In this document: in pieces, positions 28,100-63,226 of the stretch
Layout: each line of letters starts with the position of its first letter
Numbering within the stretch: position 1 is the stretch's first letter
From: Terriglobia bacterium
GTDB lineage: Bacteria > Acidobacteriota > Terriglobia > Terriglobales > Acidobacteriaceae
Direction of reading: 5' to 3'
Length of the DNA stretch: 64,000 nucleotides
Assembly (NCBI GenBank): GCA_963724105.1
Contig: CAVRTD010000002.1
Span: forward strand, 29,650-93,649
Notes under the pieces: model-generated
Told to the model about the DNA's origin: nothing
Database searches by the model: none
The model's input: only the letters and a program-made list of their open reading frames with translations
Made by a program: the position numbers and the translations under genes

Positions 28100-28273
28100 G
28101 TAATTCAATGGAGTTTTTCAGTTGTTCCCGCCCCGGGCAAGCAGCAATCTATCTATGCAACTGGAACACAGCGGGCCGAAGCAATCTCGGCGCGACGACC
28201 AGTTCTCATTTTCGATTGGCCTCCGCATTGCGGTTCATGCGGGATGAACAAACTCAGAAGGAGATTCGGCAAG

Positions 28274-28555
28274 ATGAGCCATCACGACCCTCAATTTCAA
28301 TCGGCTATTCGCCAGGTACTCCGGCGATCCGCCATAGATCAGGATTTTCGCCAGTTGGCGCTGAAAGATAGCACGGCGGCTTTCGCTAAATTTGGCATCG
28401 TTCCGCCTGCGGACGTCACGGTGGATTTCATTGACAACTTCGGGAAGCCGAGGAAGACCATTGTGCTCCCTGACCCAGTGGCACAGGTAGAGGAACTAAC
28501 AGACGAGGACTTAGAGGAAGTAGCCGGGGGATGTGTCCTGGCAAGCACCATCTAG
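28274..28555 (+). CDS. NHLP/Nif11-type RiPP precursor peptide: 86-aa leader ending VAGG, 7-aa core CVLASTI
   Basis: Start chosen at MSHHDPQF (RBS GAAGGAG 8 nt upstream). The leader reads ...AIDQDFRQLALKDSTAAFAKFGIVPPADVTVDFIDNFGKPRKTIVLPDPVAQVEELTDEDLEEVAGG|CVLASTI. It has the nitrile-hydratase-like leader layout with a classical double-Gly cleavage motif. The NHLM-type export genes follow directly. Confidence 0.8.
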   Translation: MSHHDPQFQSAIRQVLRRSAIDQDFRQLALKDSTAAFAKFGIVPPADVTVDFIDNFGKPRKTIVLPDPVAQVEELTDEDLEEVAGGCVLASTI

Positions 28556-44900: not shown

Positions 44901-44958
44901 TCAAAAACATCAAACGACGGTCCATGAGATCCATTGAATCGGAATCAAGCGTGTTCAC
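41902..44958 (-). CDS. large hybrid sensor kinase: PDZ-like - multi-TM - GAF-like - HisKA - HATPase - REC
   Basis: The PDZ-like segment is [41 protein letters not shown]. About 10 hydrophobic helices follow. The H-box is [19 protein letters not shown]. The ATPase part is DTGIGM...[11 protein letters not shown] is [13 protein letters not shown]...[13 protein letters not shown]. Confidence 0.85.
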
Positions 44959-46700
44959 GGTCGTTCCTGCCTTGTATCCAACTCAGCAAGTTGCGACGGG
45001 CTTGTTGCAAAAGAACTTCCATCGGCGTTCAACCGCGGAGGAAATGCGCGCAGCTCTCTCTGGAAATAGCGGCTGTACCGCTCGCGGAATGGTGCAGGGC
45101 GGTCTGAAGCTTTTTCTTCCAGCAGCGACGGCAAAACATCGTCAACAAAATACATTTCGGCCTGGCGGTTCCCTTTTATTCCGACCAACCCGCGCGGCGT
45201 GCAGGAAAAAAAATCCTTCAACCGCTGAAAAGCACGCTCTGAGACATTAATCTTGTTGGCCGCGCCTGACATCACCATGCGCGATGCGAAATTAACAGCA
45301 TCACCCCACACATCAAAAGCAAATTTGCTTGTTCCAACCACGCCCGCGATTACAGAACCTGTGTGAATGCCAATTCTCATGGACCAGCCGGGATGGGGCC
45401 GGCTCTGCTGAGCGGCCATCACATACTGCAGCATTTCTATCGAAGCCAGCAGCGCGTCAACCGGGTGAGATGGCGTGCGCTCGGGGAGACCAGACAGAAA
45501 AATGTAGCTGTCGCCCACCGTTTTCAGCTTCTCCAGGCCGTAACGATCAACGATGGTGTCGAAAGCCGTGAAATATTCGTTTAACAGTGTAACCAGTTCA
45601 TCGGCCGTAAGTTTTTCCGTGGACGACGTGAAACTCACAAAGTCGGTGAAAATGATGGTGACATCCTCGAAATAGGTTGGCGAGACCGAACCGCGAAGCT
45701 GGAGTTCCTCGCACACCTTCCTGGGAAGAATACTCAAGAGCAGCTTCTCGGTGGTTTGTCTCTCGGCCTCAAGTTGAAGCAGGGCAGCTTTTAGCTGCTC
45801 AGTTTGTTCTCTTTCGAGATCACGTGACTGTTTACGGTCCAGCAGAGCGCGCACACGAGTGCGAAGAAGTGTGGCGTTAAAAGGCTTCAGAACGTAATCG
45901 TCCGCTCCTGTTTCGATGCAGGCGACAACTTTCTCGGTGTCGTCGACACCTGAAATCATGATAATGGGTATGTCTTTTGCAGGCTGGCCAGACTTTGCTG
46001 CCCGAAGAACTTCGAACCCGCTGGCTCCCGGCATCACCAGATCAAGAAGGACCAGATCGATGCGCCTCTTGTCGATCATTTGCAGAACTTCATGGCCATT
46101 CACCGCGAATATTACATCGTACTTGTCGCGGCGAAGTATGCGCGCGAGCAAATCGCGGTTTGCCTCGTCGTCATCAGCAACCAGTACAACCTGTTTTTCA
46201 CCTGCAATGGAAAGCCGCGCGTCGTCAGGAGTAAGTAAACCCGGCACAAGCCGCGGAGCTTCCGCCACTGGAGCGATGATCTGCTCAAACAACTTCAAAA
46301 ACTGGTGGACGGTGAATTCAAGTTCCAGAAGATCTTCGATCATGCCGGGATCCGCGTGGCCGCGCACCATAACTTGAATTTGCCTGATTCTTTCCTGAGT
46401 CTCTTTAGCGCGCAACAAAAGCCTCTGCCCTTGTGAGGGATCGCCGTCAACTCGCTGTCCGGAGCGGCCGGGTGCGGTCATCTGAAGGTCTTGCAGCAAT
46501 GACACTGCCTCCGCCTTTAGCTGGTCTAAAGGTCCGGCCAGCCCAGCCTCGCCTGCCGCTTGTCCAATTTCCATCTTCAGCAACTCACAACTGGTGACTA
46601 TATGGTTGACGCAGTCTCGAAGTTTAAGTTGGGCATCACCAGATAAGGCTGTCGATTCAGCCGGCAAGCCTGATTTCGAAGATGTGGAGGTGAAGTTCAT
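44955..46700 (-). CDS. response regulator with class III adenylate/guanylate cyclase output
   Basis: REC is [15 protein letters not shown]...[14 protein letters not shown]. The cyclase part is [16 protein letters not shown]...KTVGDSYIF...[16 protein letters not shown]...[13 protein letters not shown]. The stop overlaps the next gene start by 4 nt, and the ATG lies 2 nt after the lanC stop. Confidence 0.85.
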
Positions 46701-46702
46701 TT

Positions 46703-47992
46703 TTACTCCCAGGAAAGTACAGAAGGTAGTAATTCCGGTTTCGCCGCCCTAAGGAGTTGATAACCGATGCCCGCGAGGCCCTTGTGAAATGTAAGAGGGG
46801 TATTGTCATTGCTGCGACCGAATCCGTAGCGCCCCCTGGTGATGGCGCGGCGCGCAACGGAGTTTGCCAACAGGACGGCCTGTTGCTTATGGCGCTCGAT
46901 TCCAAGTTTGCGCGCAGCCTCAAGAAAAAATTCGACACGTCCCAAAGTCCCACAGCACGGAAAATCGATATGGCTCAGCGTGCCAGACTTAGCTGCTGCT
47001 CGAAGGCATCGGTCAATATCCGCGCTGACCTCCGCCTGATCGAGACAAGAGCTATTGAGCCTGCCAAGGCCAATTCCTGGAGCGCCATTGCACCAGCTAT
47101 TCCAGCATTGATAGCCGCCCTGCTCCCGGGGCAGCAGTAGATGCGGCCAATTCCCTTCATCCTCACAGTAAAGGCTGTTCTCATAAGCCAGGGCTTCCGC
47201 TGCAGCATCCCGAAAGCTTGACTCTCCCGTAATCTCAAAGAGCCGGCAGAGAGCTTGAATTATTCCCGCAGCGCCATGCGCGTATCCGGTTTGGCACTTG
47301 CCTGGTGAAGTTTCCCATGCCCTCAGACCAGACGAGGTAGTAATGCGGGCGCGGAGCAGATGTTTACCCCATAGGGCTGCCTGTTCGATCATCCACGGTT
47401 CGGGAGCAAGACTATGAAGTGATGCACAAACTAATGCGCAGCCAGCGGATCCTCCCATCAGATCGACTCCACGCGCATTAACGATTCTCTGGTGAGGAAA
47501 ACGGCGTGCAATTCGGATTGCGGCTGAAAGCAACTCCTCATCGCCCATAAACGTGGCGATTCGCGCAAGGGAGTAGATGATCGAAAATGATCCCGTTCCG
47601 GCGCCTACGCCATCCCGCGCAAGCCAATCATCAACCTGTGTCGACGAAAGAGTGCGCAGCGGCTGCACTACGGCGCAAACCAGTGACCGGTACTCAGTTT
47701 TTTCAGAGATGTGGTCTAAAGCGGCAAGAAACAAACAAATTCCGTATGTTCCACCATACAAGTCGTGGCCAGAGAACTCTCGTCCACCGGACCAAGGATC
47801 ATGTTGCAGACGCCCTGTCCACGGAGCTATTCCACCCTCCGCAAAACTGGGCGATTGGGACACGATCGCACCAATGGCTGCGGCTTCATCAAGCAGCAAG
47901 CAATGAGCCCGACTAGCTTCTTCCTGATGGACTTCTGACGCGAACTCATTACTGTCGCGTTTATGAGTAGGCAACTCGATGATAGTTTTCAT
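46703..47992 (-). CDS. lanC: LanC-type lanthionine cyclase with Cys-Cys-Gly zinc motif
   Basis: Start at MKTIIELP (47992); the track ORF is extended upstream. Motifs are GYAHGAAGI, NSWCNGAPGIGL and FPCCGTLGRVEF, the last at the position of the usual CHG. Repeated GxxG helices are also present (GGTYGICLFL, GLAGIGYQLL). Confidence 0.85.
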   Translation of the reverse strand: MKTIIELPTHKRDSNEFASEVHQEEASRAHCLLLDEAAAIGAIVSQSPSFAEGGIAPWTGRLQHDPWSGGREFSGHDLYGGTYGICLFLAALDHISEKTEYRSLVCAVVQPLRTLSSTQVDDWLARDGVGAGTGSFSIIYSLARIATFMGDEELLSAAIRIARRFPHQRIVNARGVDLMGGSAGCALVCASLHSLAPEPWMIEQAALWGKHLLRARITTSSGLRAWETSPGKCQTGYAHGAAGIIQALCRLFEITGESSFRDAAAEALAYENSLYCEDEGNWPHLLLPREQGGYQCWNSWCNGAPGIGLGRLNSSCLDQAEVSADIDRCLRAAAKSGTLSHIDFPCCGTLGRVEFFLEAARKLGIERHKQQAVLLANSVARRAITRGRYGFGRSNDNTPLTFHKGLAGIGYQLLRAAKPELLPSVLSWE

Positions 47993-48020: not shown

Positions 48021-49382
48021 TCACATCCGAGATTCAGTTTGGCCAGGTTTCCAGAAAGACACTTTCGGCCTCCACCTGGCGTCGGAGCCCGATGGTAGGC
48101 TCTTTGATTCGAAAATGTCACTTCCGCTTCGAAGGAGAATCGATGCAAGCCTTGTAGTCTCCTGAGAGATGGCTGGATCGATTGGCGCACCATCCGTCAA
48201 GTCAGACCAAAACGCACTTTTTTTGCGTAGATCTACATTCAACACAAAAAGGTATGCGGCCGAAGCCAAAACAAGGTGGTGATGGAACCCTTTCCATGAC
48301 CGTCCCTGGTAGCAGCCCAGATCCAGATCACGTTCAAGACAGCCCTGGTACTGCTCCTGATACGAACGATGCCGGCTCAACCGGAGGCACATGGTTTCAG
48401 TTGGCCGTTTGTGGAAACGCGCGAGGTAACAACGATAAGGTTGTGCCTGCCCGTCGGGCCAATCGACAACAAACCAGAGTCTTTGGAGGCTGCTACTTAT
48501 CCCATGTAGACCGGAATCCAGGAAGACCTCGCGAATTGCAAGCCGCGTTTGCCGTGAAGTACCTTCACGCGTAGCCCAGGAGCAGCGCGACCATTCTGCG
48601 GCCCCGATTTTTTGCATGATTTTTTCCAGCGTGTATGGATGCGGCTGCAGGCTCGAATTCCATTCAGGCGTGTTGGACTGAAAATCCCAGGCAATATTCG
48701 TTTTTGGATCCACTTCCAGAAAGAATTCCATTCCAGCGTGCAATAAGGCTGAACGAAAATCGGCGTCGTTGCCGTAAGCAGCATCGCCTACCAGCGGCTT
48801 GGGATGGAGCCCGTCACCGGTCACTTCCCGCAATAGTGCTAGCACAAGGGATGACCGTGAGGGAAAACATGCATCCTTGGGGACCCCGGACCGCGACAGT
48901 CTCGATGACTCGGCAGCCCAGTCTGGCGGGAGATACAGCCGTGCAGCAAGCGGCGCCGCGAACGATCCATCACTGGCCAGTATCTCCACGCTGATCTGGC
49001 AACGGGACTTCTTGCCATCCGCGCCACATCGCTGGTTTGATACGCCGACAGATTCATTCCCCTGCTTTGTCCATGCTCTCTCATTCACCACCCAGCGATC
49101 GACCGGTTCAATAGTGGGAATGATTGCTCTACGTATGCGCGTCCAAACCTGTTGATCGTCCCATGGGCTGTTTGCAATCGTCTGATGCAGGCTCTGGGAG
49201 TCTACTTGCAGCCGCTCGGCAAGAGGACGAATGAATTTTCTTCTTCCGGGCAGCAGCAGGCCTTCAATGTATCTGGCGGTGGCGACCCGCCGCTCCTGCC
49301 TGCCGATGCTTTCCAGCAGCGTGGAGAGATAGCGAGTCAGGTAGGGAATATTTTCTTTATATGTTGCCAGTTCCCACTTCAT
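48021..49382 (-). mobile_element. IS701-family-like DDE transposase gene, apparently degenerate, no terminal inverted repeats found
   Basis: Start MKWELATYKEN with RBS GGAGG. The sequence WVVNERAWTKQGNESVGVSNQRCGADGKKSRCQISV...ARLYLPPDWA...VGDAAYGNDADFR...GCYQGRSWKGFHHHLVLASAAYLF follows the IS701 DDE_5 layout. The first catalytic position reads N-E-R where I expect D-D-T (motif recalled from memory). Confidence 0.65.
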
Positions 49383-49452
49383 AAATTCACGACCTCCCCT
49401 TCCGACCCACATCATGGTTCCCGAATTTCCGCGGTCTGGGCGAACATAGCGT

Positions 49453-50535
49453 CTAAGCAGACGCCTTCCACAAGATCGGCGACCGCATTGCGAACTCTAA
49501 AACCTCATCCATCGACTGATCCTGAATGGGAACGGGAAGCGCCGAATGGCGCAGCCACAGGAGACGCCATGTTCCGGGATACCATTGGCGCAACCTCTCG
49601 ACCCCGCGCCACAACAGTCGCGAGAGGTACACCTCTTCAGGGTTGTTCAATCCAATCCGATTGGCAGTCATGTGAATGTGGCTTGACGTAATGGGCCAGT
49701 GGGCTTGCCGGGAAAGACCGCTGATCTCAGCAGCCAGGCCCCGGCTAATATTCACCAGGCTGGACGGCTCACAATTTTTGCTGGCACACACGGACTCAAG
49801 CTCTGCGATTACTAATTCTGTAATCTGCTTTTCCTGCCGCGAAAACACAAGATCAGCCTCCCGAATACAAGGCTCCAGCGAATCACCCCATGCCTCTGAG
49901 GCATACGCGGCGAGCCGGACAAAATCTTCTTCGTCACCCGCCAGTCCCCAGGCAAGTTGGAGGGCCAGACGCATCATCGCGGAGTTAATCCAGTCACGAC
50001 GGGAATTGCCGCGTTCATCCAGCATTTTCAGGATAGCCAGACTGGAGATGCAAAAAAGATCAATCGAGGCGCCGATATGGTCTGCGCCTCCATAGCGATT
50101 GATTTCAAACACAGGGGTAAACTGCCGCCATGAATTGTCCGCGTAGACACGACTAACGTCCGCTCGTGCTGCCGGATCAGTGGTTGCAATCGCCCGGTTC
50201 GTAGCCAGGATCTGGTCCTGAGCAACCGGCGCTTTAGAAGGATACTTGTCAAAAAAACCGGCAGCGCGCTTTTGTAGAACTTCCTCCGCGCGTCCACTGG
50301 TATTTTCATCTTTCAATCGCCAGCGCAAACGGAGATGAGGGCCTCCAAGCGAGTACCGGACAAAATAAAACCGGTCGATCACTCCCAGGCTAGCCAGTTC
50401 GAGCATGAGCGGCCACGCCAGTTCCCGCAACATTCTGTCGCGATCGGCATGATAGAACACGTGGTATGCGCGCCAGCGCAGCAATGAATCTGGGCACGTG
50501 CCACCATTAGATTGACCTATAAGTTGCGTTGCCAT
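49453..50535 (-). CDS. stand-alone LanB C-terminal (SpaB_C / thiopeptide-type) elimination-domain protein
   Basis: LLRWRAYHVFYHADRDRMLRELAWPLM...IDRFYFVRYSLGGPHLRLRWRL and the C-terminal SSHIHMTANRIGLNNPEEVYLSRLLW match the Lant_dehydr_C / TIGR03891-type pattern (W..Y...; FF.RY..GPHLRLR; H.h.NR). Confidence 0.8.
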   Translation of the reverse strand: MATQLIGQSNGGTCPDSLLRWRAYHVFYHADRDRMLRELAWPLMLELASLGVIDRFYFVRYSLGGPHLRLRWRLKDENTSGRAEEVLQKRAAGFFDKYPSKAPVAQDQILATNRAIATTDPAARADVSRVYADNSWRQFTPVFEINRYGGADHIGASIDLFCISSLAILKMLDERGNSRRDWINSAMMRLALQLAWGLAGDEEDFVRLAAYASEAWGDSLEPCIREADLVFSRQEKQITELVIAELESVCASKNCEPSSLVNISRGLAAEISGLSRQAHWPITSSHIHMTANRIGLNNPEEVYLSRLLWRGVERLRQWYPGTWRLLWLRHSALPVPIQDQSMDEVLEFAMRSPILWKASA

Positions 50536-51395
50536 GCGTAGAGAATAATTGGGATTTCTTGTAATACGATTTGCCCCAATTGCAGCAGAGTGAAGTGGTT
50601 GATCGAGCGCAGGAGACCGAACCCCTGAGCGAGAGAAGACTTTGATTGCGAGACGATCAGGAGAACCAGTCCGTCCACGTCCACCGAGAGGTCAGTTTCT
50701 TCATTCCATATTTCGGAAAAGAATTTCTGATTTGCCCGCGAGACGGCTTTTTGCAGCCATTCGCTTGACATCTCTGGCCGTTCCTTGATGCTTTGCTCCA
50801 GCCCGAACAGAAGACTTCCAGCATGGAAGCGCCAGTAGTCCGCGGGCGGAATTTTTTGCCTTTTCAATGATCGATCAACCGCTGCCAGCCAGCGAACCGC
50901 TGCTCGTGAGACGTTGCCGCCAGCTTGCTCCAAGGCCCAGAAACATACCTGGTCGATGCGCTCCCAGAGTTCATCTGCCGCAGCAACGCCGGCATTGAGC
51001 AGAAAGGGATAGCCATTGTGTTCATGCTCAAAAATCTGAAAGGAGTTGTTCAGGGCTGAACCTGGCTCTCGATCAGCCAGATTCATCGTCCTGCCCCTGC
51101 ACCCGCCGTGCCGTTCAGACACTTCCTGAGCGCTAAGTTGTGCGTGGCTTGGATAACGGGTAATAAATTTCTGAATATTGTCCTGGAGATAGGTCTTAAC
51201 GCAGTCTCCTCCGGCGGTTGTGGTGGTGAAGATGCCGAAGACGTGCGGGCTCCGCGCGTCATACGGGCAAAACCAGAGCCGCTGCAGCAATCCCTGCCGA
51301 CGGACATCGTGCGCCCACGCGTTGAGTCCGTGTTGCAGGAGGCGCTGCTGGTCCTCCATTCCCCAATAATAGATATTAAATCCGATATTCGTCAT
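50517..51395 (-). CDS. divergent SpaB_C-like paralogue (start uncertain)
   Basis: NIGFNIYYWGMEDQQRLLQHGLNAWAH...LQRLWFCPYDARSPHVFGIF and the C-terminal LLRSINHFTLLQLGQIVLQEIPIILYAW are collinear with the SpaB_C pattern. The canonical GPHLRLR and H..NR residues are replaced. Candidate starts are at 51395, 51419 or 51359. Confidence 0.5.
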   Translation of the reverse strand: MTNIGFNIYYWGMEDQQRLLQHGLNAWAHDVRRQGLLQRLWFCPYDARSPHVFGIFTTTTAGGDCVKTYLQDNIQKFITRYPSHAQLSAQEVSERHGGCRGRTMNLADREPGSALNNSFQIFEHEHNGYPFLLNAGVAAADELWERIDQVCFWALEQAGGNVSRAAVRWLAAVDRSLKRQKIPPADYWRFHAGSLLFGLEQSIKERPEMSSEWLQKAVSRANQKFFSEIWNEETDLSVDVDGLVLLIVSQSKSSLAQGFGLLRSINHFTLLQLGQIVLQEIPIILYAWQRNL

Positions 51396-52077
51396 AGATG
51401 CCGGGGCCGCTCGACTCATAATCGATCGCAATAGTCTCAAAACGAAAGAAGCTGCGGATAACACGATCGTAGAAAGGCATTCTTCGCTCTTCTTCCATGA
51501 CCATGCATAACTCTTCAAAGAAGGCAACGTTGGGCTGGCGAATCGAAAGAAAAAGACTACGGAGCGTCGAATAAAAAACGGCTGGACCGTGGGGCGTCTC
51601 GCAAAGAGGGGTGCGGTCCGTAAGCATCGCCTGCACGCGGCTGATGTGGCTATGCATTTCTTCCCATTTGCGCTGATTGCGCGCCACGCGAGCCTGGTTA
51701 ATACACAGGTCGGGACACTGCAGGGCGAATGGAATCAGGAATTCATATTCCTCTGCGGCCATGGCGACGGCCCTGTGTGCCCATTTCATCGACTCGCTTG
51801 CGCTCGCGAAATCTCCTGCTCGGTAGTGGTATAGGCCAAGAGTCTTGTAGTAAGACTGGTCAAGCACAACTCGAACCGAATTGGGTATGTCGACAGCTTC
51901 CAGAGCGCCACCGGCTTTCTGCAGAATGTTTCCGGCTTCCTTTATTTTGTGCGAACGAAGAAGCGGCATCGCGCTGTTGATCAGGCGCAAGATGTGGCAG
52001 TGACGTTTATATTCCCCAACCCATGCGAGCCCGGCATCACCGGTGCGCTCGATAAATTCAATCAGGATATCTGCCAT
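51376..52077 (-). CDS. unknown helical-repeat protein, paralogue 2 of a tandem pair
   Basis: 233 aa. It shares blocks with 52138-52809: YHYRAGDFASASESMKWAHRAV vs YFYSVGNFQQARESMNQAHDAV; QARVARNQRKWEEM vs QARIARNQRRWPEM; FYDRVIRSFFRFETIAIDYES vs LFDQFVRRMLRFQEIGIEYQS. No TM or signal peptide. Confidence 0.6.
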   Translation of the reverse strand: MADILIEFIERTGDAGLAWVGEYKRHCHILRLINSAMPLLRSHKIKEAGNILQKAGGALEAVDIPNSVRVVLDQSYYKTLGLYHYRAGDFASASESMKWAHRAVAMAAEEYEFLIPFALQCPDLCINQARVARNQRKWEEMHSHISRVQAMLTDRTPLCETPHGPAVFYSTLRSLFLSIRQPNVAFFEELCMVMEEERRMPFYDRVIRSFFRFETIAIDYESSGPGIYDEYRI

Positions 52078-52954: not shown

Positions 52955-53110
52955 TCAGCCAGAGCAGACGTTAGCGGAGCAGGATGCGATCGGGCAAGGT
53001 TCAAGAACGCCGCCGGAAACATCTTCCAGCGCCTGATCGGACAGTGGTTCAATCTCAACATCTTGTTTTTTTTCTGGAATTGCATTTGGATTGGTAGCTT
53101 TGTCAGACAT
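52955..53110 (-). CDS. lanA: lanthipeptide-type precursor A1 (51 aa), not in the ORF track
   Basis: Hand translation: MSDKATNPNAIPEKKQDVEIEPLSDQALEDVSGG|VLEPCPIASCSANVCSG*. RBS AAAGGAAAAAAC precedes the ATG. The leader is double-Gly type and the core has 3 Cys and 3 Ser. The 79-aa track ORF 52846-53085 is the wrong frame. Confidence 0.8.
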   Translation of the reverse strand: MSDKATNPNAIPEKKQDVEIEPLSDQALEDVSGGVLEPCPIASCSANVCSG

Positions 53111-53295: not shown

Positions 53296-53451
53296 CTACG
53301 CTAGGTCGCCAGAGCAAACATTTGCGGAACATGAAGCGATGGGGCAGCCACCGGAAGCATCTTCGAGCGACTGGTCGGAAAGTGGTTCGATCTGAACGTC
53401 ATCCTGTTTCTTTTCGGGGACTACATTTGGTTTATTGGGAGTGTTAGCCAT
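53296..53451 (-). CDS. lanA: lanthipeptide-type precursor A2 (51 aa), not in the ORF track
   Basis: Hand translation: MANTPNKPNVVPEKKQDDVQIEPLSDQSLEDASGG|CPIASCSANVCSGDLA*. RBS AAAGGAACAACCATC precedes the ATG. It shares the CPIASCSANVCSG core block with A1. Confidence 0.8.
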   Translation of the reverse strand: MANTPNKPNVVPEKKQDDVQIEPLSDQSLEDASGGCPIASCSANVCSGDLA

Positions 53452-53642: not shown

Positions 53643-56399
53643 CTACCTTGTTGCGGCTTGCTCATCGCGTTGACGTAACCGAGATGACTCCCGGCTGGAA
53701 AACACATCGAGCGAAAACATGGCGCGCTCATCCACAGGCGATTGCAATGCAACCGCATCAACCAGCAATTCAACCGCCCACCTTTGCCCTTTGGAATCTC
53801 TGGGCATCATCTCCGGTTCGGGCAATGTTTCCACCAGCACAAGGGACCCTTCGGCTGCGAGCGCGATGGAGTGCAGGATCGAGATGAACAATGGTGAGCT
53901 CAGGTCCAGATATTGCGGCTTGTGGTATTTTCCCCGCGGGAAAGAATTAAGCTTCTCAGCCACAAACAAACGGGTTGGAATCTCGAACTTCCGGAGGAAA
54001 CGATGCAGCCGCTCAAACGCCTCTGGGCTCCCAGGGTCTTCCAGAATGCGCCGCAGATCTAGAGCTGGAACACTCCAACTCTTGCGCATAAGCACTACAT
54101 TTCCGATGCGCGTCCGCTCGCGGACGGTGATGCCATCGACCTCTCGCTGTAAGCGTTCGGGATAGAGGGGAATCGTATCTGTTGGTCCGAACGCACACAA
54201 AAACTTCACCAGAGTTGGCAGGTAAGTGGAGCCAGCAAGGCCGATATAAGACGCCAGGTAGCGCTGTCCACTGCGATCCTGCAGCCTGGGCCATCCATCT
54301 TCACCCACTGTAACAAACAGCTCTGCCAAAGAAAGGCGCCGTTCGGGCGCTATATCCATATGGGTTGCCGGCAGCACCAGGACTTTTGGGGTTTGTGGCG
54401 CATGCACGTTGAGCGTGTCACCACTCACGCAATGAATGTCCAATATCTGCAAGCATTCGTCGTTATCCAAAATTACCGCTCGCCGCGCTAACCCGTCAGC
54501 ATACTGATGGCGGAGCGGAGCCGGCATCAACGGAGTGTAACGGCTGGACATCCGGCCCGTTCCTTCTTTCAACCGGTTGAGCACCCACAGAGAACCATCC
54601 GCTGTAGCCGGTTGGAGAAAAAGGCAGCCGCCTCCCTGGTACTTCTTGAATGCGTCAGGTATCTCGTCCAGGAGAAGGTTAAAACGGCTTATCGAGATTG
54701 TGCGGCCCTGCGCATCATCCATCCAACAATTGCGCAAAGATTCGCGGGCAGCAGTGCGTACCGATAGCAAATGATCCAGCACATCCAGACCCAGCGGATT
54801 CCAGGTTGAATGCTGCTCCTCAGTGGACCTGATCGCGGACTCATGAGAAACGTATTCCTGGAACAAATCCCGCACAGCGTCAAACGCACTGAGAAGATCC
54901 AGCCTGCAGTGCTTCCCTTTACTTTTTTCGAGAACAGAGCCAACGCTGAATAGAAGATCAAGGCGGCGGTCAAACAAGCGTGAGTATCGTAAAAGTGGCT
55001 CTGCGCTCCGTTGGGCCTGTTCCATGGCCGTCCTTCCAACACTCACGACTGGAAGACCCTTATCGGATTTGGGAGAACACCAAACATCCTGATAAATATC
55101 GTGCCCGGGAATATGCGACGCCGTTTTCGTATTGGTCGGGAGTTGAGCAATACGAGTGGCGCTGAACACCATTTCGTCCATCGTTTGCTGCATGCGCAAG
55201 AGCGTTTGTCCCGGTTCATTTGCGGAAAAAAGATTTCCTTCCAGAAGCACTAACCGCTCCAGAAGTTCAATGAAGTTTTGCAGCGCCGGGTCATGCGGCA
55301 ACAGCTGGAGCTTTTGCAGGACCATTTTCTCAAGGTGCCCTTCATCGGCGCTCCAGGGCAACGCCAGATACAGAAACCCCAAATCAATCAGACTGTCTAT
55401 TTCTTCTTTGATCGACTCGGAATGCGCATCCATTTCATCTTCGATCAGCTTAAGTAGCTCAACATAATTGAGCGGACCGCTAGCCAGAAGTGATTGCAGG
55501 CGCTGGACGAGAGGCCCCTGAAGCCTGGCGCGAACAAGTGACTCGCGGTAGTAACGGATCTCCTTGGTATCTTCGTCCACTCGATACTGCCCGGGACGGC
55601 GGTGAAGAGTCCGTCCGTCCTCGAGTTTCGAAACTGAATCGTTAATCGCTACCGAAAGCGTGCGCCGCCACGGTTCATAAAGACATAACGCATCGGTACA
55701 CCGGTCAAGAATGTGTCTACGTACGCGCACTAGAGAATGCTGATCCCATTCACCAGGCAACAATCTCAAAGGCTCCGAGCCGCCTTCCACGCGACACAAC
55801 CCGACCGGAGTGAAAGTCGAGAATGGAGACAGTTTGAGAGAAGCCCGGCTGGCGTAACGCAATACTGTCGCGGCCAGGCGTTTTTCCCGGCGACCATAAT
55901 CTTCCGGCGCTTTCACTTTCAAACGGCCGGACTCGCTGGCCACTGTATTGCTTGCCACTGCCAGCCCGCAGCGGAACATGGGATTATCAATCAGCCCAGC
56001 GACACAGTGATACTGCCTTGTTGTTTCATCTCCGTGGGCTTTTACAAACTCTTGCTTTTGATGAGCGAGGTTCTCTTCCAGCTCAATCACTTGTTCCGCC
56101 AGCGCCGGAGCGGCTTGTTTTATGAGCATCCAAACCAGCTTCGTGCGATAGCGGGTTAGTGGACGTCCATTAAAGCAATCACGCTTGACTTCCAGGAGAG
56201 CGTGTCGTTTCTCGGTCGGAGCATTATGAATAGCCGCGTGAAGCTGTTCAACAAGTTCATTACGAGCGTTGGATAAATTAGCTTCGAGCTTTGCTATCGC
56301 ATTCAGAATATCGCCCAACCGGCTGGAAAAATCCTCCATTGTGCTGGCGGGGAGTCCGCTCAATCGGGCTATAAGTAGGGCTGAATTGCTCGTCGTCAC
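53643..56399 (-). CDS. lanB: LanB-type dehydratase, N-terminal (glutamylation) part only, no fused elimination domain
   Basis: 918 aa. MTTSNSALLIARLSGLPAST..., KRDCFNGRPL and LKLSPFSTFTPVGLCRV follow the Lant_dehydr_N pattern. The protein ends without a SpaB_C-like region. Confidence 0.85.
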   Translation of the reverse strand: MTTSNSALLIARLSGLPASTMEDFSSRLGDILNAIAKLEANLSNARNELVEQLHAAIHNAPTEKRHALLEVKRDCFNGRPLTRYRTKLVWMLIKQAAPALAEQVIELEENLAHQKQEFVKAHGDETTRQYHCVAGLIDNPMFRCGLAVASNTVASESGRLKVKAPEDYGRREKRLAATVLRYASRASLKLSPFSTFTPVGLCRVEGGSEPLRLLPGEWDQHSLVRVRRHILDRCTDALCLYEPWRRTLSVAINDSVSKLEDGRTLHRRPGQYRVDEDTKEIRYYRESLVRARLQGPLVQRLQSLLASGPLNYVELLKLIEDEMDAHSESIKEEIDSLIDLGFLYLALPWSADEGHLEKMVLQKLQLLPHDPALQNFIELLERLVLLEGNLFSANEPGQTLLRMQQTMDEMVFSATRIAQLPTNTKTASHIPGHDIYQDVWCSPKSDKGLPVVSVGRTAMEQAQRSAEPLLRYSRLFDRRLDLLFSVGSVLEKSKGKHCRLDLLSAFDAVRDLFQEYVSHESAIRSTEEQHSTWNPLGLDVLDHLLSVRTAARESLRNCWMDDAQGRTISISRFNLLLDEIPDAFKKYQGGGCLFLQPATADGSLWVLNRLKEGTGRMSSRYTPLMPAPLRHQYADGLARRAVILDNDECLQILDIHCVSGDTLNVHAPQTPKVLVLPATHMDIAPERRLSLAELFVTVGEDGWPRLQDRSGQRYLASYIGLAGSTYLPTLVKFLCAFGPTDTIPLYPERLQREVDGITVRERTRIGNVVLMRKSWSVPALDLRRILEDPGSPEAFERLHRFLRKFEIPTRLFVAEKLNSFPRGKYHKPQYLDLSSPLFISILHSIALAAEGSLVLVETLPEPEMMPRDSKGQRWAVELLVDAVALQSPVDERAMFSLDVFSSRESSRLRQRDEQAATR

Positions 56400-56615: not shown

Positions 56616-56765
56616 TCACCCTAAGTCTGGAGGCCCACACAAGGGTGAACCAGTTTCAGTACCGCCTGAAACTTCCTCAAGAGCGGCGTCGGAAAGGGGT
56701 TCGATTTCAGCGTCTTTCCGGCTCTGAATTGACTTGCCAGGCTGTTTTTTTTCCTCGTTTGGCAT
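56616..56765 (-). CDS. lanA: third precursor A3 (49 aa) with the same leader box, different core
   Basis: MPNEEKKQPGKSIQSRKDAEIEPLSDAALEEVSGG|TETGSPLCGPPDLG*. Start at the internal ATG 56765 of track ORF 56616-56810, with RBS GAAGGGA upstream. Confidence 0.7.
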   Translation of the reverse strand: MPNEEKKQPGKSIQSRKDAEIEPLSDAALEEVSGGTETGSPLCGPPDLG

Positions 56766-56831: not shown

Positions 56832-57854
56832 TTACACCCGCGCAAGCTCCTGCGCAGGCACAAGACTATGATCTTCTACCGCTTTAATCAGAAGATGGTG
56901 CACATAGGCCTCATGCAGAGGTGTTACCCCAAATTGATTCGCCATTCCGTGCAACATCTTGAACAGAGGCGGAAAGTTCACGTTCGTAGTGAACGGATCA
57001 ATCTGATGTTCGCCGGAGCCGGCAAAAGATTGCGTATAAGCTGACAATGCCGCAAAGGTCCGCAACCACGGCTCTACTTCCTGGGCGCCGCTGTTGCGCG
57101 CCCACTCTTCATCACTGAGCTGCGCCAGCTTTGTTCTGGCAGTGCTGGAACCGGCTTGGGCATCAAAATGTGCACGAATCTCCAACTCTTTGCTGGATTC
57201 GGAAATGAAAAACCGCAAAAGCCAATCGCGATGAAAGGCAAGATATTCTGTCGCGCTGGTTCGATCACCAAGGCCAGAAGCACCCAGAGCCGAGATCAGG
57301 CTTTTTGCCAACAGAGATTGCTTGCTGCCATCCGAAAGCTCGCCCTGCTCATCTACGGCGGTGAGGAACACGCCAGTTGTTGCCGCAAGGCAACGACAGG
57401 CAAGGGCGACAAAATTTTCGTCTTCGAGCCAGGGTGACGCAGGAAGCGACACGTAGCTGCGTCCATAGGTTGTGGCGAGAAAGTTACGATCGGCGAAATC
57501 AGAATCTACTTTGTCTTCAGCGTCAATGGGTGGGGCCTTGGGATTACTTACACGAGGATCAGCCGCCAGGTAAGTGCGCGCTTTCTCGATCCACTTTTCT
57601 ACGTGGCTGTGCAGCAAAGGCCTCAGTGAATCCACCACAGCCCGCTCACCGTGAAGCCGAATCTTGAGGTGCTCCCCACCACGCGCGTAACGCATAATCC
57701 AAAGCCAACAATCCCCATCTGGCCGGACGCCCTGCATGTCACGCCAGAACGGCACAATCCCTTGCTGCAACAGGTTGTCCACCAGGCCGCTGGCATAAAT
57801 ATTTGCGGTTAAGATTGGATCTGCCGAATTGAGTGAATTAAGCATGTCCTTCAC
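56832..57854 (-). CDS. third SpaB_C-like (LanB C-terminal-type) paralogue
   Basis: ILTANIYASGLVDNLLQQGIVPFW...CWLWIMRYARGGEHLKIRLHG and the C-terminal LFKMLHGMANQFGVTPLHEAYVHHLL are collinear with the SpaB_C pattern. Confidence 0.65.
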   Translation of the reverse strand: MKDMLNSLNSADPILTANIYASGLVDNLLQQGIVPFWRDMQGVRPDGDCWLWIMRYARGGEHLKIRLHGERAVVDSLRPLLHSHVEKWIEKARTYLAADPRVSNPKAPPIDAEDKVDSDFADRNFLATTYGRSYVSLPASPWLEDENFVALACRCLAATTGVFLTAVDEQGELSDGSKQSLLAKSLISALGASGLGDRTSATEYLAFHRDWLLRFFISESSKELEIRAHFDAQAGSSTARTKLAQLSDEEWARNSGAQEVEPWLRTFAALSAYTQSFAGSGEHQIDPFTTNVNFPPLFKMLHGMANQFGVTPLHEAYVHHLLIKAVEDHSLVPAQELARV

Positions 57855-59068: not shown

Positions 59069-60331
59069 CTATTGGATGGGGGTTGACGGCGTGAATTTTG
59101 GAACCATAATCACGATGTCATATCCAAAAATAAGCCGCTCCAGCTCTTCATCAACTGGGCCAAGCGCTTTAAATCTCCGGCGAAGGCCGCGAAGATCGTA
59201 GAGAGTCCAGCCTTCCGGCAATCGATGGTCCACCAGCGGCTTAATGAAAGAAACCGCAGAACTTGTATCCTGTACCAGATCAAAATTCTCCAGTTGCGGT
59301 GGCTGGCCGGGCGCACCAAAACTGATCTCTGCTCCCTTCACTCCAATGATGTTGATATGAAGAGAGGTGGAATGATGGCCTTCTGCCAATTCAGCCACAA
59401 AATTGCCCAGATCGTCGTTATGTAGAGGATTAATCCCCTTATAAAGGTGGGCGGAGCCAAACTTGAGCAAGACTTTGGCGGGTTTTCCCTCAGCCCGCGT
59501 CTGGTCATCATAATAACGGGCGAACAACGCCTTCATCATTAGCGCCCGCTGAAGGTTGGAATCATAAGCTTCACCCTGCAGATATTTGTGGTAGATATCG
59601 CGGCTTTCGATGAAGGCATTCAGAATGGCTTGCGAAGCCGGATTCCCTTCCCGAGCCACCGAGTTCTTAAGTTCCAGAATCTCGCTGTCCGGCACAGACA
59701 GCATAAAAATATCGTTCACTTTCCCCGAAGCCACGGTCCGCGCATAGGCTTGATCATTTTCGCGGAACATCTGGCGTATTTTGGCAGCCGCCGCCTTGCC
59801 GGGATGAGAATTCAAGAGGCTCTGTAGCAAAAACCTGGACTCTCCGTAAAACTCCTGATCAAGCCCCCATATATGGAATTTTTCATTTTCCGCAGTATGG
59901 CTGCAATGGGCCAACAGATCTGTTTCCTCCTGAAGACGATAGAATGGGAGGGCGTCTGGAAATTCTTTCTGAAACTCAGCAACCTGGTGGCGTGAATCCG
60001 TGGAGCGGGCCCACTTCTCTAATTGGCCGGCCATCATTGGGCCGGTTTCAATTGCCATGGAATGAAACCCTTGCGGAACGGCAAGGTCACATATTGCAGA
60101 AGAGAACTCGGGGGTTTCCGCATTGCCGTGTTGTTCACCGATGAGCACAAACTGGGCGGAGGCAATGGCCTTGCGCAGAACCTCAGCTCCTGCGCCAGAT
60201 AAATGCCCATCCTTCAGGTTGAGATCATAGCGGTTCTCAAGAAGTTGTTTTCCGAGTTGTTCCTGCGCCAACATACATCCAAGGCCGGCAATTCCTAGAA
60301 ATACCACAGCCGCCAGTTTGGTGATCACCAA
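59069..60331 (-). CDS. secreted Tiki/ChaN/erythromycin-esterase-superfamily-like protein
   Basis: 420 aa with a signal peptide (AAVVFLGIAGLGCMLAQ). FVLIGEQHGNAETPEFSSAICDLAVPQGFHSMAIETG resembles the GE.H(G)..E...Gf...E N-terminal signature of that superfamily (recalled from memory). The gene follows lanKC by 80 nt. Confidence 0.45.
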   Translation of the reverse strand: MVITKLAAVVFLGIAGLGCMLAQEQLGKQLLENRYDLNLKDGHLSGAGAEVLRKAIASAQFVLIGEQHGNAETPEFSSAICDLAVPQGFHSMAIETGPMMAGQLEKWARSTDSRHQVAEFQKEFPDALPFYRLQEETDLLAHCSHTAENEKFHIWGLDQEFYGESRFLLQSLLNSHPGKAAAAKIRQMFRENDQAYARTVASGKVNDIFMLSVPDSEILELKNSVAREGNPASQAILNAFIESRDIYHKYLQGEAYDSNLQRALMMKALFARYYDDQTRAEGKPAKVLLKFGSAHLYKGINPLHNDDLGNFVAELAEGHHSTSLHINIIGVKGAEISFGAPGQPPQLENFDLVQDTSSAVSFIKPLVDHRLPEGWTLYDLRGLRRRFKALGPVDEELERLIFGYDIVIMVPKFTPSTPIQ

Positions 60332-60411: not shown

Positions 60412-63111
60412 TCAGGATCCGACGTGCATTGCAACCAGCGCCTGTTCTTCTTCCGAGAATAAAGTACCATCTCTTGCAAACAAGGAGTCAAGCATAAAAT
60501 CGTTTTGCTGATTTCCAAGCAGGCGGTTAAGAAATAGAGCAATGCCTGCGCTTCCTGTACCGAAATCACATGACAGCCTGAATAGTGAATTTCCGGGAAA
60601 TGCGATTCCCTTCCGTTCCACACGGAAATTCATTATTCCCTCTGCAAGTCTGGCAGCACTTTCCCGATACCGGGAGTGTGCGGTCAGGTCGTGCATGTCG
60701 AGAAGAAACTCGCCGATGCCTGCCAGGCCAGTGAATCGTCCTGCAAAAACCGCGTATTTCCGGTCGGTATCCAGATAGATCTTATCCAAAACCTGTTCAT
60801 AGCAGGATTCACCGAGCAGTCGGTAGTAGCGCGCCGTTGCAATCCCGATTCCAGCACTCCCGTGCTGCCAGTATGGATAGACCGGCGACGTTGATCCGGT
60901 TGACATGGGCCACGTAAGTCCCGCATCTTTATTTTGCAATCCGAAACTCAGATCAAAGTCCAAAGCACGCCGCCCAACATAAAGAAAGCGCTCATTCTTT
61001 GTTGCGAGATAGAGGTAGAGCAGGAACAGAGCAATGCCGGAAGATCCGCGGGCAAGGCCGAGAGGCGCACCTTCGCGTTCACCCCAGTAGCAGCCGCGTC
61101 CGTCTTCTTTACACTGCTCGACAAGGTGATTCCCGGCTTGCACGGCGTGCGCAAGGTAAACTCTGTCGTTCGTAGCCATCCAGAAACGCAGGTCTGCCAT
61201 CCCCCACCCGGAAACGCCATGGAAGAGATCGCAAGCATCAAAAGCCAGGGGATGTGTATGGACCTGGCGCATTGCAGTCTCTGCTTCTGCCTGCAACCCC
61301 ATTTCAAGCAGACTCCATGCAATTCCAGCGAGCCCGATATACAGACCTGGAGCATATGTCCCATGCGTCAAACGCTTGTTGCTGATCCACTGCAGAACAC
61401 GGGAGGGCACGCCTCCTGTGATTTTGTGCCATGCATAAGCCACACCACATGCCCCAAAAGCGAGGCTGAGCGGGTTGGTAGCAAAGAGCCTGGCATCGGC
61501 CGGAAACAGCCTATCTTCGCGTTCATACGTTACCGTACTCTTCCAGTGGTCGACGATGCGCTCCAACACGCAAGGGTAGTTCTCCCGCCTGAGTTCATGC
61601 ACGGGCTCCACTTCGACGCTGGAATCTTCATCCATCAGGCAACCGAGACGGGCGGGTGTTGTAGGCTGACCTGGATCATGATTCATCAATCCAATAATCA
61701 TGCTTGTGATTGATCTGGGCAGTCGAGAATCCTTGCGTATCGATTCCATCAGCTCACGAATCGCTTCTCTTTTAAGTTGAATGAGGCCATTCCAGGGAAA
61801 AAGGTAGGCAAACAGGACCGCTCCAAGCGAATAGTAATCACTTTCAATGTCGGCAGGCATACCCTGGAGTCGATTCGGCGAGACGAATCCAGGAGTAAAA
61901 AGATTGGTGGGACGATCAATCTCTTTCTGGTAAGCACCTTCGAAGTCGATAAGCTTCAGGGAAGTGCCGCCGGCCAATACCATCACATTATTCGCGGAGA
62001 GATCCGCGAAGACGATGCCACGGCTATGCAATACTTCGATCATCCGGATGAGATTCAGAGAGATTTCAACAAAGGTCCGCTGCCATTCGACATAGTCTGT
62101 CTGCAAAGGCCTGGTGCGGAGCAAAATATTGTGCGCCGCGGAGTAACGGCCCAGTACCATTCCGTCAATGTATTCTTCAACTAGGAACCAATGCTCCCAA
62201 TCCTGGAAGAGATCCACGGGTTGCGGGGCTATTCCTGTATCGGCGATGACTGTGAGCAGGCGGTGTTCCTTCTTGAGCAGTTCCACCGCATCGTAACCGT
62301 CAAACGATTCATTCACGAACGGCCGGGCTTCCTTGATCACGACGGGCTGCCGGGTGAGATGGTCAAACGCCTTATACACGCCTCCGGCATTGGAAAAATC
62401 AATTACACTTTCGATCGTATAACGCCCTTGCTTAAGAGTTGGGCTGGCTTCGTTGTTGTCCGCTGGCTCGTCTGGAGCCAGTGGACCACATACCCAGTCC
62501 GGCGTAATGGGATACGGAAGCCTCTGATCGGGGACTGAACTCCCGTCAGGGGTGATAAGAACGGGAACACTCTCGCCTTTTACATTCAGCTTCTCACGGA
62601 GGCGCATTCCACCGTATCGATAGAAAACAACGCCACTATCTTTATAACGGCGATCTGAGAGAATGTAGGGCCCCTGGAATCCCTTAAGTTCTTGACGCAG
62701 GGATTCAATCAGTTCCAGAAAGCAATGGTCATTTTGAGGGTAGATGGTAATGAATTTGGAAGATCCCCCTCGAGGGAAGTTTTTGCCGTTCACAAGCTGC
62801 AATACCCGCAGATCCAGGGAAAATTTAAACGTGGTGTCCTGACGCTGGAGGAGCAGTGCGCTCACGCGATCCAGCACTTCACGCGCATTTGCCAGCGAGC
62901 TGGAAACATGTATCTTCCAACCCTGGTATGGACAGAGATTTTGTTGTGAGGAGCAAACAAACCAGAGCTGTTGCCGGCGAATCTCCCATCCCCCTGACAA
63001 CCGAGACGAGACTAGGTCATAAAAATCCTTAGTGCGCGGCACATAGTAGTCAAATGTTTCGTCATAATCGCTTTGCACCAGGCTATAAAGCCCATATGCT
63101 CTGGTTCGCAT
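60412..63111 (-). CDS. lanKC: class III lanthipeptide synthetase (lyase - kinase - Zn-ligand-less cyclase)
   Basis: The lyase motifs are QGWKIHVSS and SKFITIYP. The kinase motifs are GGVYKAF..VVIKEA, FADLSANNVMV and KLIDFEGAY. The C-terminal LanC-like repeats (GSSGIALFL, YWQHGSAGIGIA, CDFGTGSAGIALFL) lack the WC and CH zinc ligands. The probable start is MRTRAYG (63111, RBS GAAGGGA); the track gives a TTG at 63132. Confidence 0.85.
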   Translation of the reverse strand: MRTRAYGLYSLVQSDYDETFDYYVPRTKDFYDLVSSRLSGGWEIRRQQLWFVCSSQQNLCPYQGWKIHVSSSLANAREVLDRVSALLLQRQDTTFKFSLDLRVLQLVNGKNFPRGGSSKFITIYPQNDHCFLELIESLRQELKGFQGPYILSDRRYKDSGVVFYRYGGMRLREKLNVKGESVPVLITPDGSSVPDQRLPYPITPDWVCGPLAPDEPADNNEASPTLKQGRYTIESVIDFSNAGGVYKAFDHLTRQPVVIKEARPFVNESFDGYDAVELLKKEHRLLTVIADTGIAPQPVDLFQDWEHWFLVEEYIDGMVLGRYSAAHNILLRTRPLQTDYVEWQRTFVEISLNLIRMIEVLHSRGIVFADLSANNVMVLAGGTSLKLIDFEGAYQKEIDRPTNLFTPGFVSPNRLQGMPADIESDYYSLGAVLFAYLFPWNGLIQLKREAIRELMESIRKDSRLPRSITSMIIGLMNHDPGQPTTPARLGCLMDEDSSVEVEPVHELRRENYPCVLERIVDHWKSTVTYEREDRLFPADARLFATNPLSLAFGACGVAYAWHKITGGVPSRVLQWISNKRLTHGTYAPGLYIGLAGIAWSLLEMGLQAEAETAMRQVHTHPLAFDACDLFHGVSGWGMADLRFWMATNDRVYLAHAVQAGNHLVEQCKEDGRGCYWGEREGAPLGLARGSSGIALFLLYLYLATKNERFLYVGRRALDFDLSFGLQNKDAGLTWPMSTGSTSPVYPYWQHGSAGIGIATARYYRLLGESCYEQVLDKIYLDTDRKYAVFAGRFTGLAGIGEFLLDMHDLTAHSRYRESAARLAEGIMNFRVERKGIAFPGNSLFRLSCDFGTGSAGIALFLNRLLGNQQNDFMLDSLFARDGTLFSEEEQALVAMHVGS

Positions 63112-63226
63112 ACATAATCCCTTCGTGCTCAATACTTGTAGCGAATCCTAAATACAATTTTGCGGCCGGCGATCTGGCGCCGAATATTCAACCTTGCTCC
63201 TGTTTTTCATTTCCAATTCCTGCAAA

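Follow-up and report, generated by a model that had tools for sequence, protein, structure and literature searches.

How does a lanthipeptide cyclase that is encoded as a separate polypeptide come to carry a Cys-Cys-Gly (CCG) motif at the place of the usual Cys-His-Gly (CHG), and which pathway does it serve? This question is raised by a gene at positions 46703-47992 (minus strand) of a 64,000-nucleotide stretch of an acidobacterial genome (Terriglobia bacterium, assembly GCA_963724105.1, contig CAVRTD010000002.1, positions 29,650 to 93,649; hereafter the window, to which coordinates refer unless another locus is named). A preceding sequence-only reading had described the gene product as a stand-alone LanC with a three-cysteine zinc site and had linked it to the promiscuous ProcM-like class II synthetases. 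Our analysis indicates that the protein is probably a working zinc-dependent cyclase with the ligands Cys301, Cys346 and Cys347, and that it is what remains, as the cyclase domain, of a ProcM-clade (CCG) LanM whose DUF4135 half was lost in one acidobacterial lineage.

The putative zinc site of the stand-alone cyclase

The gene is an open reading frame (ORF) of 429 codons that is free of stops. An alternative longer frame extends to 48193 and runs into the upstream gene; the Met at 47992 is favoured as the start by homologue lengths of 407-446 aa, and the stop of the upstream gene lies only 28 nt before it. The product (P0001) matches the Pfam family LANC_like (PF05147) with an E-value of 7.5e-51, its residues 75-426 covering profile positions 4-349 of 350. 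Furthermore, its AlphaFold2 model is an (alpha/alpha)-barrel with a predicted local distance difference test score (pLDDT) of 86.4 and a predicted template modelling score (pTM) of 0.88, for which Foldseek returned LicM2 as the best match, followed by GCR2, CuvL, LanCL2, MadC, LanCL1 and NisC (all with a probability of 1.00). The only other LanC-like domain in the genome belongs to a class III LanKC at 60412-63132, and, therefore, the stand-alone cyclase is the sole candidate zinc cyclase for peptides dehydrated by LanB.

All three motifs quoted in the sequence-only reading were located in the ORF: GYAHGAAG with H239 (47264-47287, minus strand), SWCNG with C301 as first zinc ligand, followed by Asn302 (47084-47098, minus strand), and DFPCCGTLG (46940-46966, minus strand). 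Within the latter, the CCG codons span 46949-46957 (minus strand), with C346 at 46955-46957, C347 at 46952-46954 and G348 at 46949-46951. The claim that CCG stands at the usual place of CHG was borne out by every alignment employed. In the pairwise HMMER alignment, C346-C347-G348 falls on C-H-G of LicM2 (PDB 6st5), and in a profile of 24 sequences the CCG column coincides with the CHG not only of LicM2 but also of Arabidopsis GCR2 (3t33), CylM (5dzt) and LanCL2 (6wq1), so that the CC pair sits at the ligand position with respect to four solved structures. In a multiple alignment (alignment A1), the same column reads LCHG in remoter stand-alone relatives (P0041, P0050, P0060, P0066, P0070 and P0086) and CCG in all closer ones. 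No His elsewhere takes the role of third ligand: the sole invariant His is H239 of GYAHG, which is unchanged throughout alignments A1 and A4 and is known as the active-site acid of LanC-type enzymes. These alignments confirm, at the level of sequence, that C347 occupies the position of the His ligand, and we infer that zinc would be held by Cys301, Cys346 and Cys347.

The conservation of the motif extends well beyond the window. H239, W300, C301, C346, C347 and G348 are all invariant in 10 full-length orthologues (48-59% identity), which form the stand-alone clade discussed below, and, of the 150 best representatives, 116 are full-length LanMs, 113 of which likewise carry CCG. Moreover, it is embedded in a wider signature. 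Among related, and hence not independent, sequences with CCG, an Asp precedes the motif by three residues in 168 of 172 and an Arg follows six residues past the first Cys in 146 of 172, while the CHG sequences, which are related in the same way, show Asn at the Arg position in 52 of 61 and the Asp in only 1 of 61. The window cyclase reads D-F-P-C-C-G-T-L-G-R and, therewith, displays the complete D-x-x-C-C-G-x-x-G-R signature. Since the motif is invariant in orthologues, frequent in LanMs and part of this wider signature, it represents neither a chance feature nor a sequencing slip.

The residue that follows the first zinc Cys is Asn or Ser in both clades of stand-alone CCG cyclases that are linked to LanB (WCNG), compared to His in most CCG LanMs (WCHG). 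The position corresponds to His277 of LanCL1, Tyr285 of NisC and Lys876 of CylM, and a role in activating the dehydro residue has been proposed for it (PMC9934072). As an observation in its own right, Asn or Ser at this position of the LanB-linked clades could be an adaptation to working without the dehydratase half of LanM.

Descent from a ProcM-clade LanM

The label stand-alone LanC is apt with respect to gene structure but not with respect to lineage, as the protein is a LanM stripped of its dehydratase domain and not a class I LanC. Among NCBIfam models, the protein fits the LanM model TIGR03897 best, on which cyclase residues 24-419 align to profile positions 540-932 with 275 bits, compared to 173 bits for LANC_like; the family profile, in turn, scores LicM2 with 195 bits and NisC with 57.7 bits. 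In a scan of 1.84 billion representative sequences, the seven best matches after the representative of the cyclase's own cluster were LanMs or LanM fragments, matched by their C-terminal ends at 41-46% identity, and four of them were full-length proteins of 1074-1086 aa. Against the LanM encoded in a Candidatus Angelobacter metagenome-assembled genome (MAG; L009), BLASTP aligned cyclase residues 33-428 to LanM residues 682-1077 with 41% identity and four gap positions.

Phylogeny leads to the same placement. In a maximum-likelihood tree that comprises 61 cyclase domains and has its root on CHG sequences, the 10 stand-alone orthologues (P0001-P0010) form one clade (Shimodaira-Hasegawa-like approximate likelihood-ratio test, 99), which nests several starred branches (95-100) deep among CCG LanM cyclase domains. 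Constraining all LanM domains to one clade was 42 log-likelihood units worse (approximately unbiased test, p = 0.027), for a group that was chosen after the tree had been inspected. Furthermore, the N-terminal part of LanM is absent from the 97.2%-complete genome as searched with TIGR03897 and PF13575 (DUF4135), the latter of which, as a positive control, matched the genomes of L009 and L010 with E-values of 1e-105 and 1e-111. The lost part would correspond to the N-terminal DUF4135 dehydratase domain of roughly 650 residues.

The link to ProcM-like class II enzymes that the sequence-only reading had drawn from the motif is therefore real, and stronger than supposed, since profile, representatives and tree concur in deriving the cyclase from a ProcM-clade LanM. 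By contrast, the notion of a LanC that had gained CCG does not agree with the placement in the tree. As a LanM without its former dehydratase domain, the cyclase owes the motif to its LanM ancestor and has not acquired it as an adaptation. ProcM, SyncM and NpuM ('class IIa', or D-CCC, LanMs; for their zinc site we draw on secondary statements in PMC13060382 and PMC10027976) share with the window cyclase the three-Cys motif and its D..CCG..GR surroundings, and the window cyclase falls within the CCG LanMs in the phylogeny. Unlike in the ProcM clade, however, no DUF4135 domain is found here, either fused to the cyclase or elsewhere in the genome, so that dehydration would have to come from a split LanB; moreover, Asn replaces His after the first zinc Cys, and there are just four candidate substrates, all of them local.

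An alternative origin, in which a class I LanC of the NisC/SpaC lineage converged on a three-cysteine site, would account for the fact that the cyclase, like NisC, SpaC and MadC, is a separate polypeptide of the usual LanC length (about 430 aa) encoded together with LanB, and class I LanCs also have the (alpha/alpha)-barrel, the GxxHG acid and the WCxG cysteine in common with it. It is nevertheless very improbable: the third ligand is His in the Cys-Cys-His set of class I enzymes and Cys in the window cyclase, the best-matching models and structures are of LanM type, and the protein groups with LanM cyclase domains in sequence and tree, nested within those carrying CCG and collinear with LanM residues 682-1077. 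In addition, sister clusters hold a full LanM at the same syntenic place.

Descent from LanM leaves the question of whether the remaining domain is still at work. Pairwise dN (nonsynonymous divergence) between the stand-alone cyclases amounts to 0.35-0.49, and dN/dS is at most about 0.16, a figure that is an upper bound only, as dS (synonymous divergence) is saturated. The stand-alone cyclases are thus under purifying selection. From the data presented here, we infer both cyclase activity and the identity of the substrate peptides.

Gene order, LanB machinery and a transposase-like companion

In the window, the minus strand carries, in this order, a SpaB_C gene, a 'transposase' gene of the DDE_5 type, the cyclase gene, a gene for a response-regulator/adenylate-guanylate cyclase (44955-46700, minus strand), which starts 2 nt past the cyclase stop, and a hybrid kinase gene. 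This order recurs in L004, L007, L008, L097 and L100, with proteins that are 50-81% identical. In L009, L088, L089 and L090, a full-length LanM (1062-1085 aa; the L090 copy ends at the contig end) comes after the same DDE_5-like gene, and in L009, L088 and L089 the full LanM is succeeded by the same signalling genes as in the window, including the response-regulator/cyclase gene. L088 carries the LanB set and a full LanM together, while no LanB was found within the stretch fetched for L089 or seen in the available flanks of L009 and L090. The simplest series compatible with these gene orders would run from LanM only via LanM plus LanB to LanB plus a cyclase remnant. The dehydratase domain would have been lost after the cluster had gained a split LanB, or while it already held one, and this loss would have occurred just once, at the base of the P0001-P0010 clade. 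The LanM of L088 (11408-14596 of that locus) was also observed to have a cyclase domain on a very long branch (1.02), which reads WCQG and GFAHGSFG; with LanB present, this hints at a relaxed or changed constraint.

The P0009/P0010 subclade (L098, L099 and L101) shows a different arrangement, in which SpaB_C and the cyclase are followed by a homologue of a 420-aa protein of the window, with neither the DDE_5-like gene nor the signalling genes in these contexts. Taken together, each of the 8 contexts recovered has a SpaB_C gene upstream of the stand-alone cyclase, either directly or across the dead-transposase gene, and the LanB machinery is therefore the constant partner of the cyclase. For the 420-aa protein itself, which is an exported one (59069-60331, minus strand; homologues at L098 2162-3436 and L101 4130-4312), sequence searches of Pfam, NCBIfam and PDB gave no match. 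Since its homologue directly follows the cyclase in the subclade that is devoid of signalling genes, it is probably part of the peptide pathway, perhaps with a role in processing or immunity.

The LanB machinery of the window is split. The only LanB of the genome is a dehydratase of the LanB N-terminal (glutamylation) type with 918 aa (53643-56399, minus strand). A canonical LanB elimination-domain protein (Lant_dehydr_C; 49453-50535, minus strand) is the upstream neighbour of the cyclase and is accompanied by a divergent SpaB_C-like paralogue (50517-51527, minus strand) as well as a third SpaB_C-like protein (56832-57854, minus strand). In the pathway that we propose, the 918-aa protein would glutamylate Ser/Thr of precursors with GG leaders, and a SpaB_C protein would remove glutamate to yield dehydroalanine or dehydrobutyrine. 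The stand-alone cyclase would then turn core Cys into zinc thiolates, which would undergo Michael addition while H239 protonates the enolate. The leader would be taken off by an ATP-binding cassette (ABC) exporter with a C39 peptidase domain (31592-33910, plus strand), for which cleavage behind the GG is expected in each of the four leaders found in the island. Glutamylation and elimination on separate proteins, together with extra SpaB_C paralogues, are also features of split-LanB class I pathways (pinensin and similar ones as well as those of the thiopeptide TbtB/TbtC type). However, the known examples have a CHG-type LanC or no LanC at all, in contrast to the LanM-derived CCG cyclase of the window. 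The cyclase and LanB together make up a natural hybrid between two lanthipeptide classes, which is a rare occurrence. A 2024 survey (R Soc Open Sci, PMC11251773) listed 'B-CCC', a LanB-type dehydratase clustered with a three-Cys cyclase as in the window, as one of four hitherto undescribed combinations, with 2 predicted peptides. Acidobacteria are not among the three phyla named there for new combinations, and the origin of the cyclase was not traced. We found no characterised 'B-CCC' member in the literature.

Stand-alone CCG cyclases appear, from the 61-domain tree, to have been derived from LanMs at least four times. The P0015-P0021 group represents a split LanM, in which a 654-aa DUF4135 ORF stops one base ahead of a 409-aa cyclase ORF; the locus (L092, 8035-11230) adjoins two NHLP (nitrile hydratase leader peptide) precursors and a radical SAM (S-adenosylmethionine) gene, and the split has been kept in five homologues of 408-409 aa. 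In the P0024/P0032 group (L093, 10001-15327), a CCG stand-alone cyclase (P0024) is encoded next to a 907-aa LanB-N-like protein with 33% identity to the LanB-N protein of the window, a gene of 54 codons that resembles a precursor gene, and a SpaB_C gene. This gene content constitutes a second, independent pairing of LanB with a CCG cyclase.

A metagenome scan with the alignment of the stand-alone clade retrieved only two loci, both of which matched the pattern. The closest match in public genomes, at 61% identity, comes from a MAG labelled Acidobacteriaceae (L008). No close homologue was present among 300 genomes of the family, 3 of them from the same genus, and only 2 of the 300 contain distant homologues, at 32-38% identity. 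For this reason, the island (28244-63132) is accessory and has probably been acquired horizontally.

The gene directly upstream of the cyclase (48021-49415, minus strand) encodes a conserved, catalytically dead IS701/DDE_5-like protein, which marks the ancestral LanM junction. It precedes either the stand-alone LanC (the window, L004, L007, L008, L097 and L100) or a full LanM (L009, L088, L089 and L090), that is, it was found in 10 clusters. The gene is single-copy in the genome, no terminal or flanking inverted repeats were detected around it, and its product is 60-78% identical across clusters, which exceeds the conservation of the cyclase; its dN/dS is at most about 0.11, again an upper bound. 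For comparison, we examined nine true IS701-type transposases of about 425 aa, several of which lie on contigs of about 1.4-1.7 kb and some of which have dozens to hundreds of members. While D-D-E-K is kept in all nine of these, the first catalytic Asp is lost in each of the 23 cluster-linked members (replaced by N, H, S, A or Q in 'VVNERAW'), the catalytic Glu in 12 of the 23, and the catalytic Lys is changed to Glu or Asp in all 23, which also possess an extra tail of about 30 residues. The structural model shows a whole Tn5-transposase-like fold with an N-terminal helical domain (pLDDT 83.7; Foldseek against Tn5, E 1.7e-11). A fresh insertion of an insertion sequence (IS) was ruled out by the conserved synteny, the single copy and the lack of inverted repeats.

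The same evidence bears on a scenario in which the cyclase ORF is merely the decaying 3' fragment of a LanM that was recently cut by such an element. A transposase-like gene that ends 28 nt ahead of the cyclase start codon is what this scenario would predict, yet it is scarcely credible. The same junction occurs in six clusters, the proteins of which share only 50-81% identity, and this conserved synteny contradicts a recent event. Moreover, none of the 23 cluster-linked members of the 'transposase' retains the first catalytic Asp, and its gene is single-copy and has no terminal inverted repeats; the cyclase is under purifying selection with invariant catalytic residues; and one subclade holds the stand-alone cyclase without any transposase-like gene. 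The DDE_5-like protein is rather an exapted transposase tied to the LanM/LanC lineage, and it could act as a DNA-binding regulator or as a protein partner. We also entertain, although with considerable doubt, the idea that the cyclase and the dead IS701-like protein form a dedicated module inherited from LanM, with the latter as docking factor or scaffold or as DNA-binding regulator of the operon, which plugs a bidirectional cyclase into the LanB pathway. If true, this would represent a natural class I/II hybrid route together with the first exapted transposase as a core part of a peptide-modification cluster.

The downstream neighbours invite another explanation, namely that the cyclase is kept mainly as a sensor, adaptor or thiol-transfer enzyme of the cAMP/phosphorelay module, in the manner of LanC-like and LanM-like proteins of certain other organisms. 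The response-regulator/cyclase gene begins 2 nt after the cyclase stop, and the block of DDE_5-like gene, LanM or LanC, response-regulator cyclase and histidine kinase is kept even in clusters in which no LanB was seen (L089, L009 and L090). A quorum-sensing LanM-like protein has reportedly been described from Clostridium. We nonetheless regard such a role as improbable, given that in L098, L099 and L101 the cyclase is found apart from the signalling genes and still beside SpaB_C, that its catalytic residues are all invariant, and that it is the sole zinc-cyclase candidate for a LanB pathway with Cys-rich cores.

A biosynthetic cyclase of LanM descent therefore remains our preferred interpretation. 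It should be noted that, besides the choice of the constrained group after inspection of the tree, several points weigh against it: a LanM-type cyclase would have to recognise leaders without the help of its dehydratase half; Asn or Ser in place of His after the first zinc ligand could lower or alter activity; and the signalling genes and the dead transposase, as the other constant neighbours in most clusters, leave room for a role outside biosynthesis.

Precursor peptides, predicted ring direction and implications

The sequence-only reading had also noted an NHLP precursor and divergent cores within the island, and a scan for precursor peptides across the genome agrees with it. Using the leader-end motif [LIVMP][ST][DE]xx[LM][EDQ]x[VAI][STAN]GG in all six frames of the whole genome, we retrieved four peptides only, all of them in the island. 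These comprise three short precursors, A1 (52955-53110, minus strand; leader ending in EIEPLSDQALEDVSGG, core VLEPCPIASCSANVCSG), A2 (53296-53451, minus strand; leader ending in QIEPLSDQSLEDASGG, core CPIASCSANVCSGDLA) and A3 (56616-56765, minus strand; leader ending in EIEPLSDAALEEVSGG, core TETGSPLCGPPDLG), as well as an NHLP-type precursor (28244-28555, plus strand) with the leader end VEELTDEDLEEVAGG and the 7-residue core CVLASTI. The cores of A1 and A2 both contain CPIASCSANVCSG. Over its final 15 residues, the NHLP leader has a motif in common with the three short leaders (IEPLSDxxLExxSGG), whose IEPLSDQSLEDASGG the NHLP leader end resembles. Related acidobacterial LanMs, like the window island, are associated with NHLP precursors, and their leaders end in ...E.L.EVAGG; those that adjoin the LanM relatives in L010 end in LELTEAELQEVAGG. 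Owing to the resemblance of the NHLP leader end to both the short leaders and the L010 endings, one recognition motif may serve all four peptides. The NHLP precursor is likely the ancestral type of LanM substrate. The short leaders may have arisen from the end of the NHLP leader, and both kinds may be recognised by one set of enzymes and one exporter.

Whether the cyclase is also fully ProcM-like in being highly promiscuous, with many diverse substrates, is a separate matter. Its complete D..CCG..GR signature, the occurrence of three unrelated core types (CPIASCSANVCSG, TETGSPLCGPPDLG and CVLASTI) under one leader end, and the 4-6 precursors held by related clusters would all be in line with broad tolerance. 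We consider this unlikely, however, as the four peptides with the leader-end motif are the only ones in the whole genome and are all local, unlike the dispersed substrate sets of ProcM, and as the six precursors of L088 are near-copies of one core. In addition, the motif stems from the LanM ancestor, and NpuM, a CCG enzyme, has a single substrate (PMC13060382), so that CCG alone does not predict promiscuity.

What the ancestry does suggest is the direction of ring closure. ProcM-clade enzymes, with their three Cys ligands, close rings in both directions, while class I LanCs usually require the Cys to be C-terminal to the dehydro residue (PMC13060382). Several cores of the island have a Cys N-terminal to Ser/Thr. 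In CVLASTI, Cys precedes all Ser/Thr, and any ring must accordingly have its Cys on the N-terminal side; CPIASCSANVCSG and WCSIIACSGQ of L088 require at least one ring of this kind if no Cys is left unused. As a ProcM-clade enzyme, the cyclase would be expected to close rings in both directions, including those with Cys N-terminal to the dehydro residue as in CVLASTI and CPIASCSANVCSG. Bidirectional ring closure, and not the sheer number of substrates, would thus be the useful prediction to be drawn from CCG ancestry.

Lanthipeptide classes are defined by the combination of dehydratase and cyclase. Here, a cyclase from the class II lineage with the widest substrate tolerance has been freed from its own dehydratase and paired with a class I LanB, which has happened at least twice independently, and the novelty of the locus lies in a ProcM-clade cyclase domain that serves as a stand-alone enzyme within a split-LanB pathway. 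Our analysis also corrects the annotation of such genes, which public sources list as 'LanM' or 'lantibiotic modifying enzyme'. If active, the enzyme would be a naturally stand-alone ProcM-type cyclase and, as such, a tool for engineering thioether peptides with LanB enzymes. It would further allow testing whether the three-Cys site, and not the LanM architecture, confers bidirectional ring closure, and would provide a dated case of domain loss by functional redundancy.

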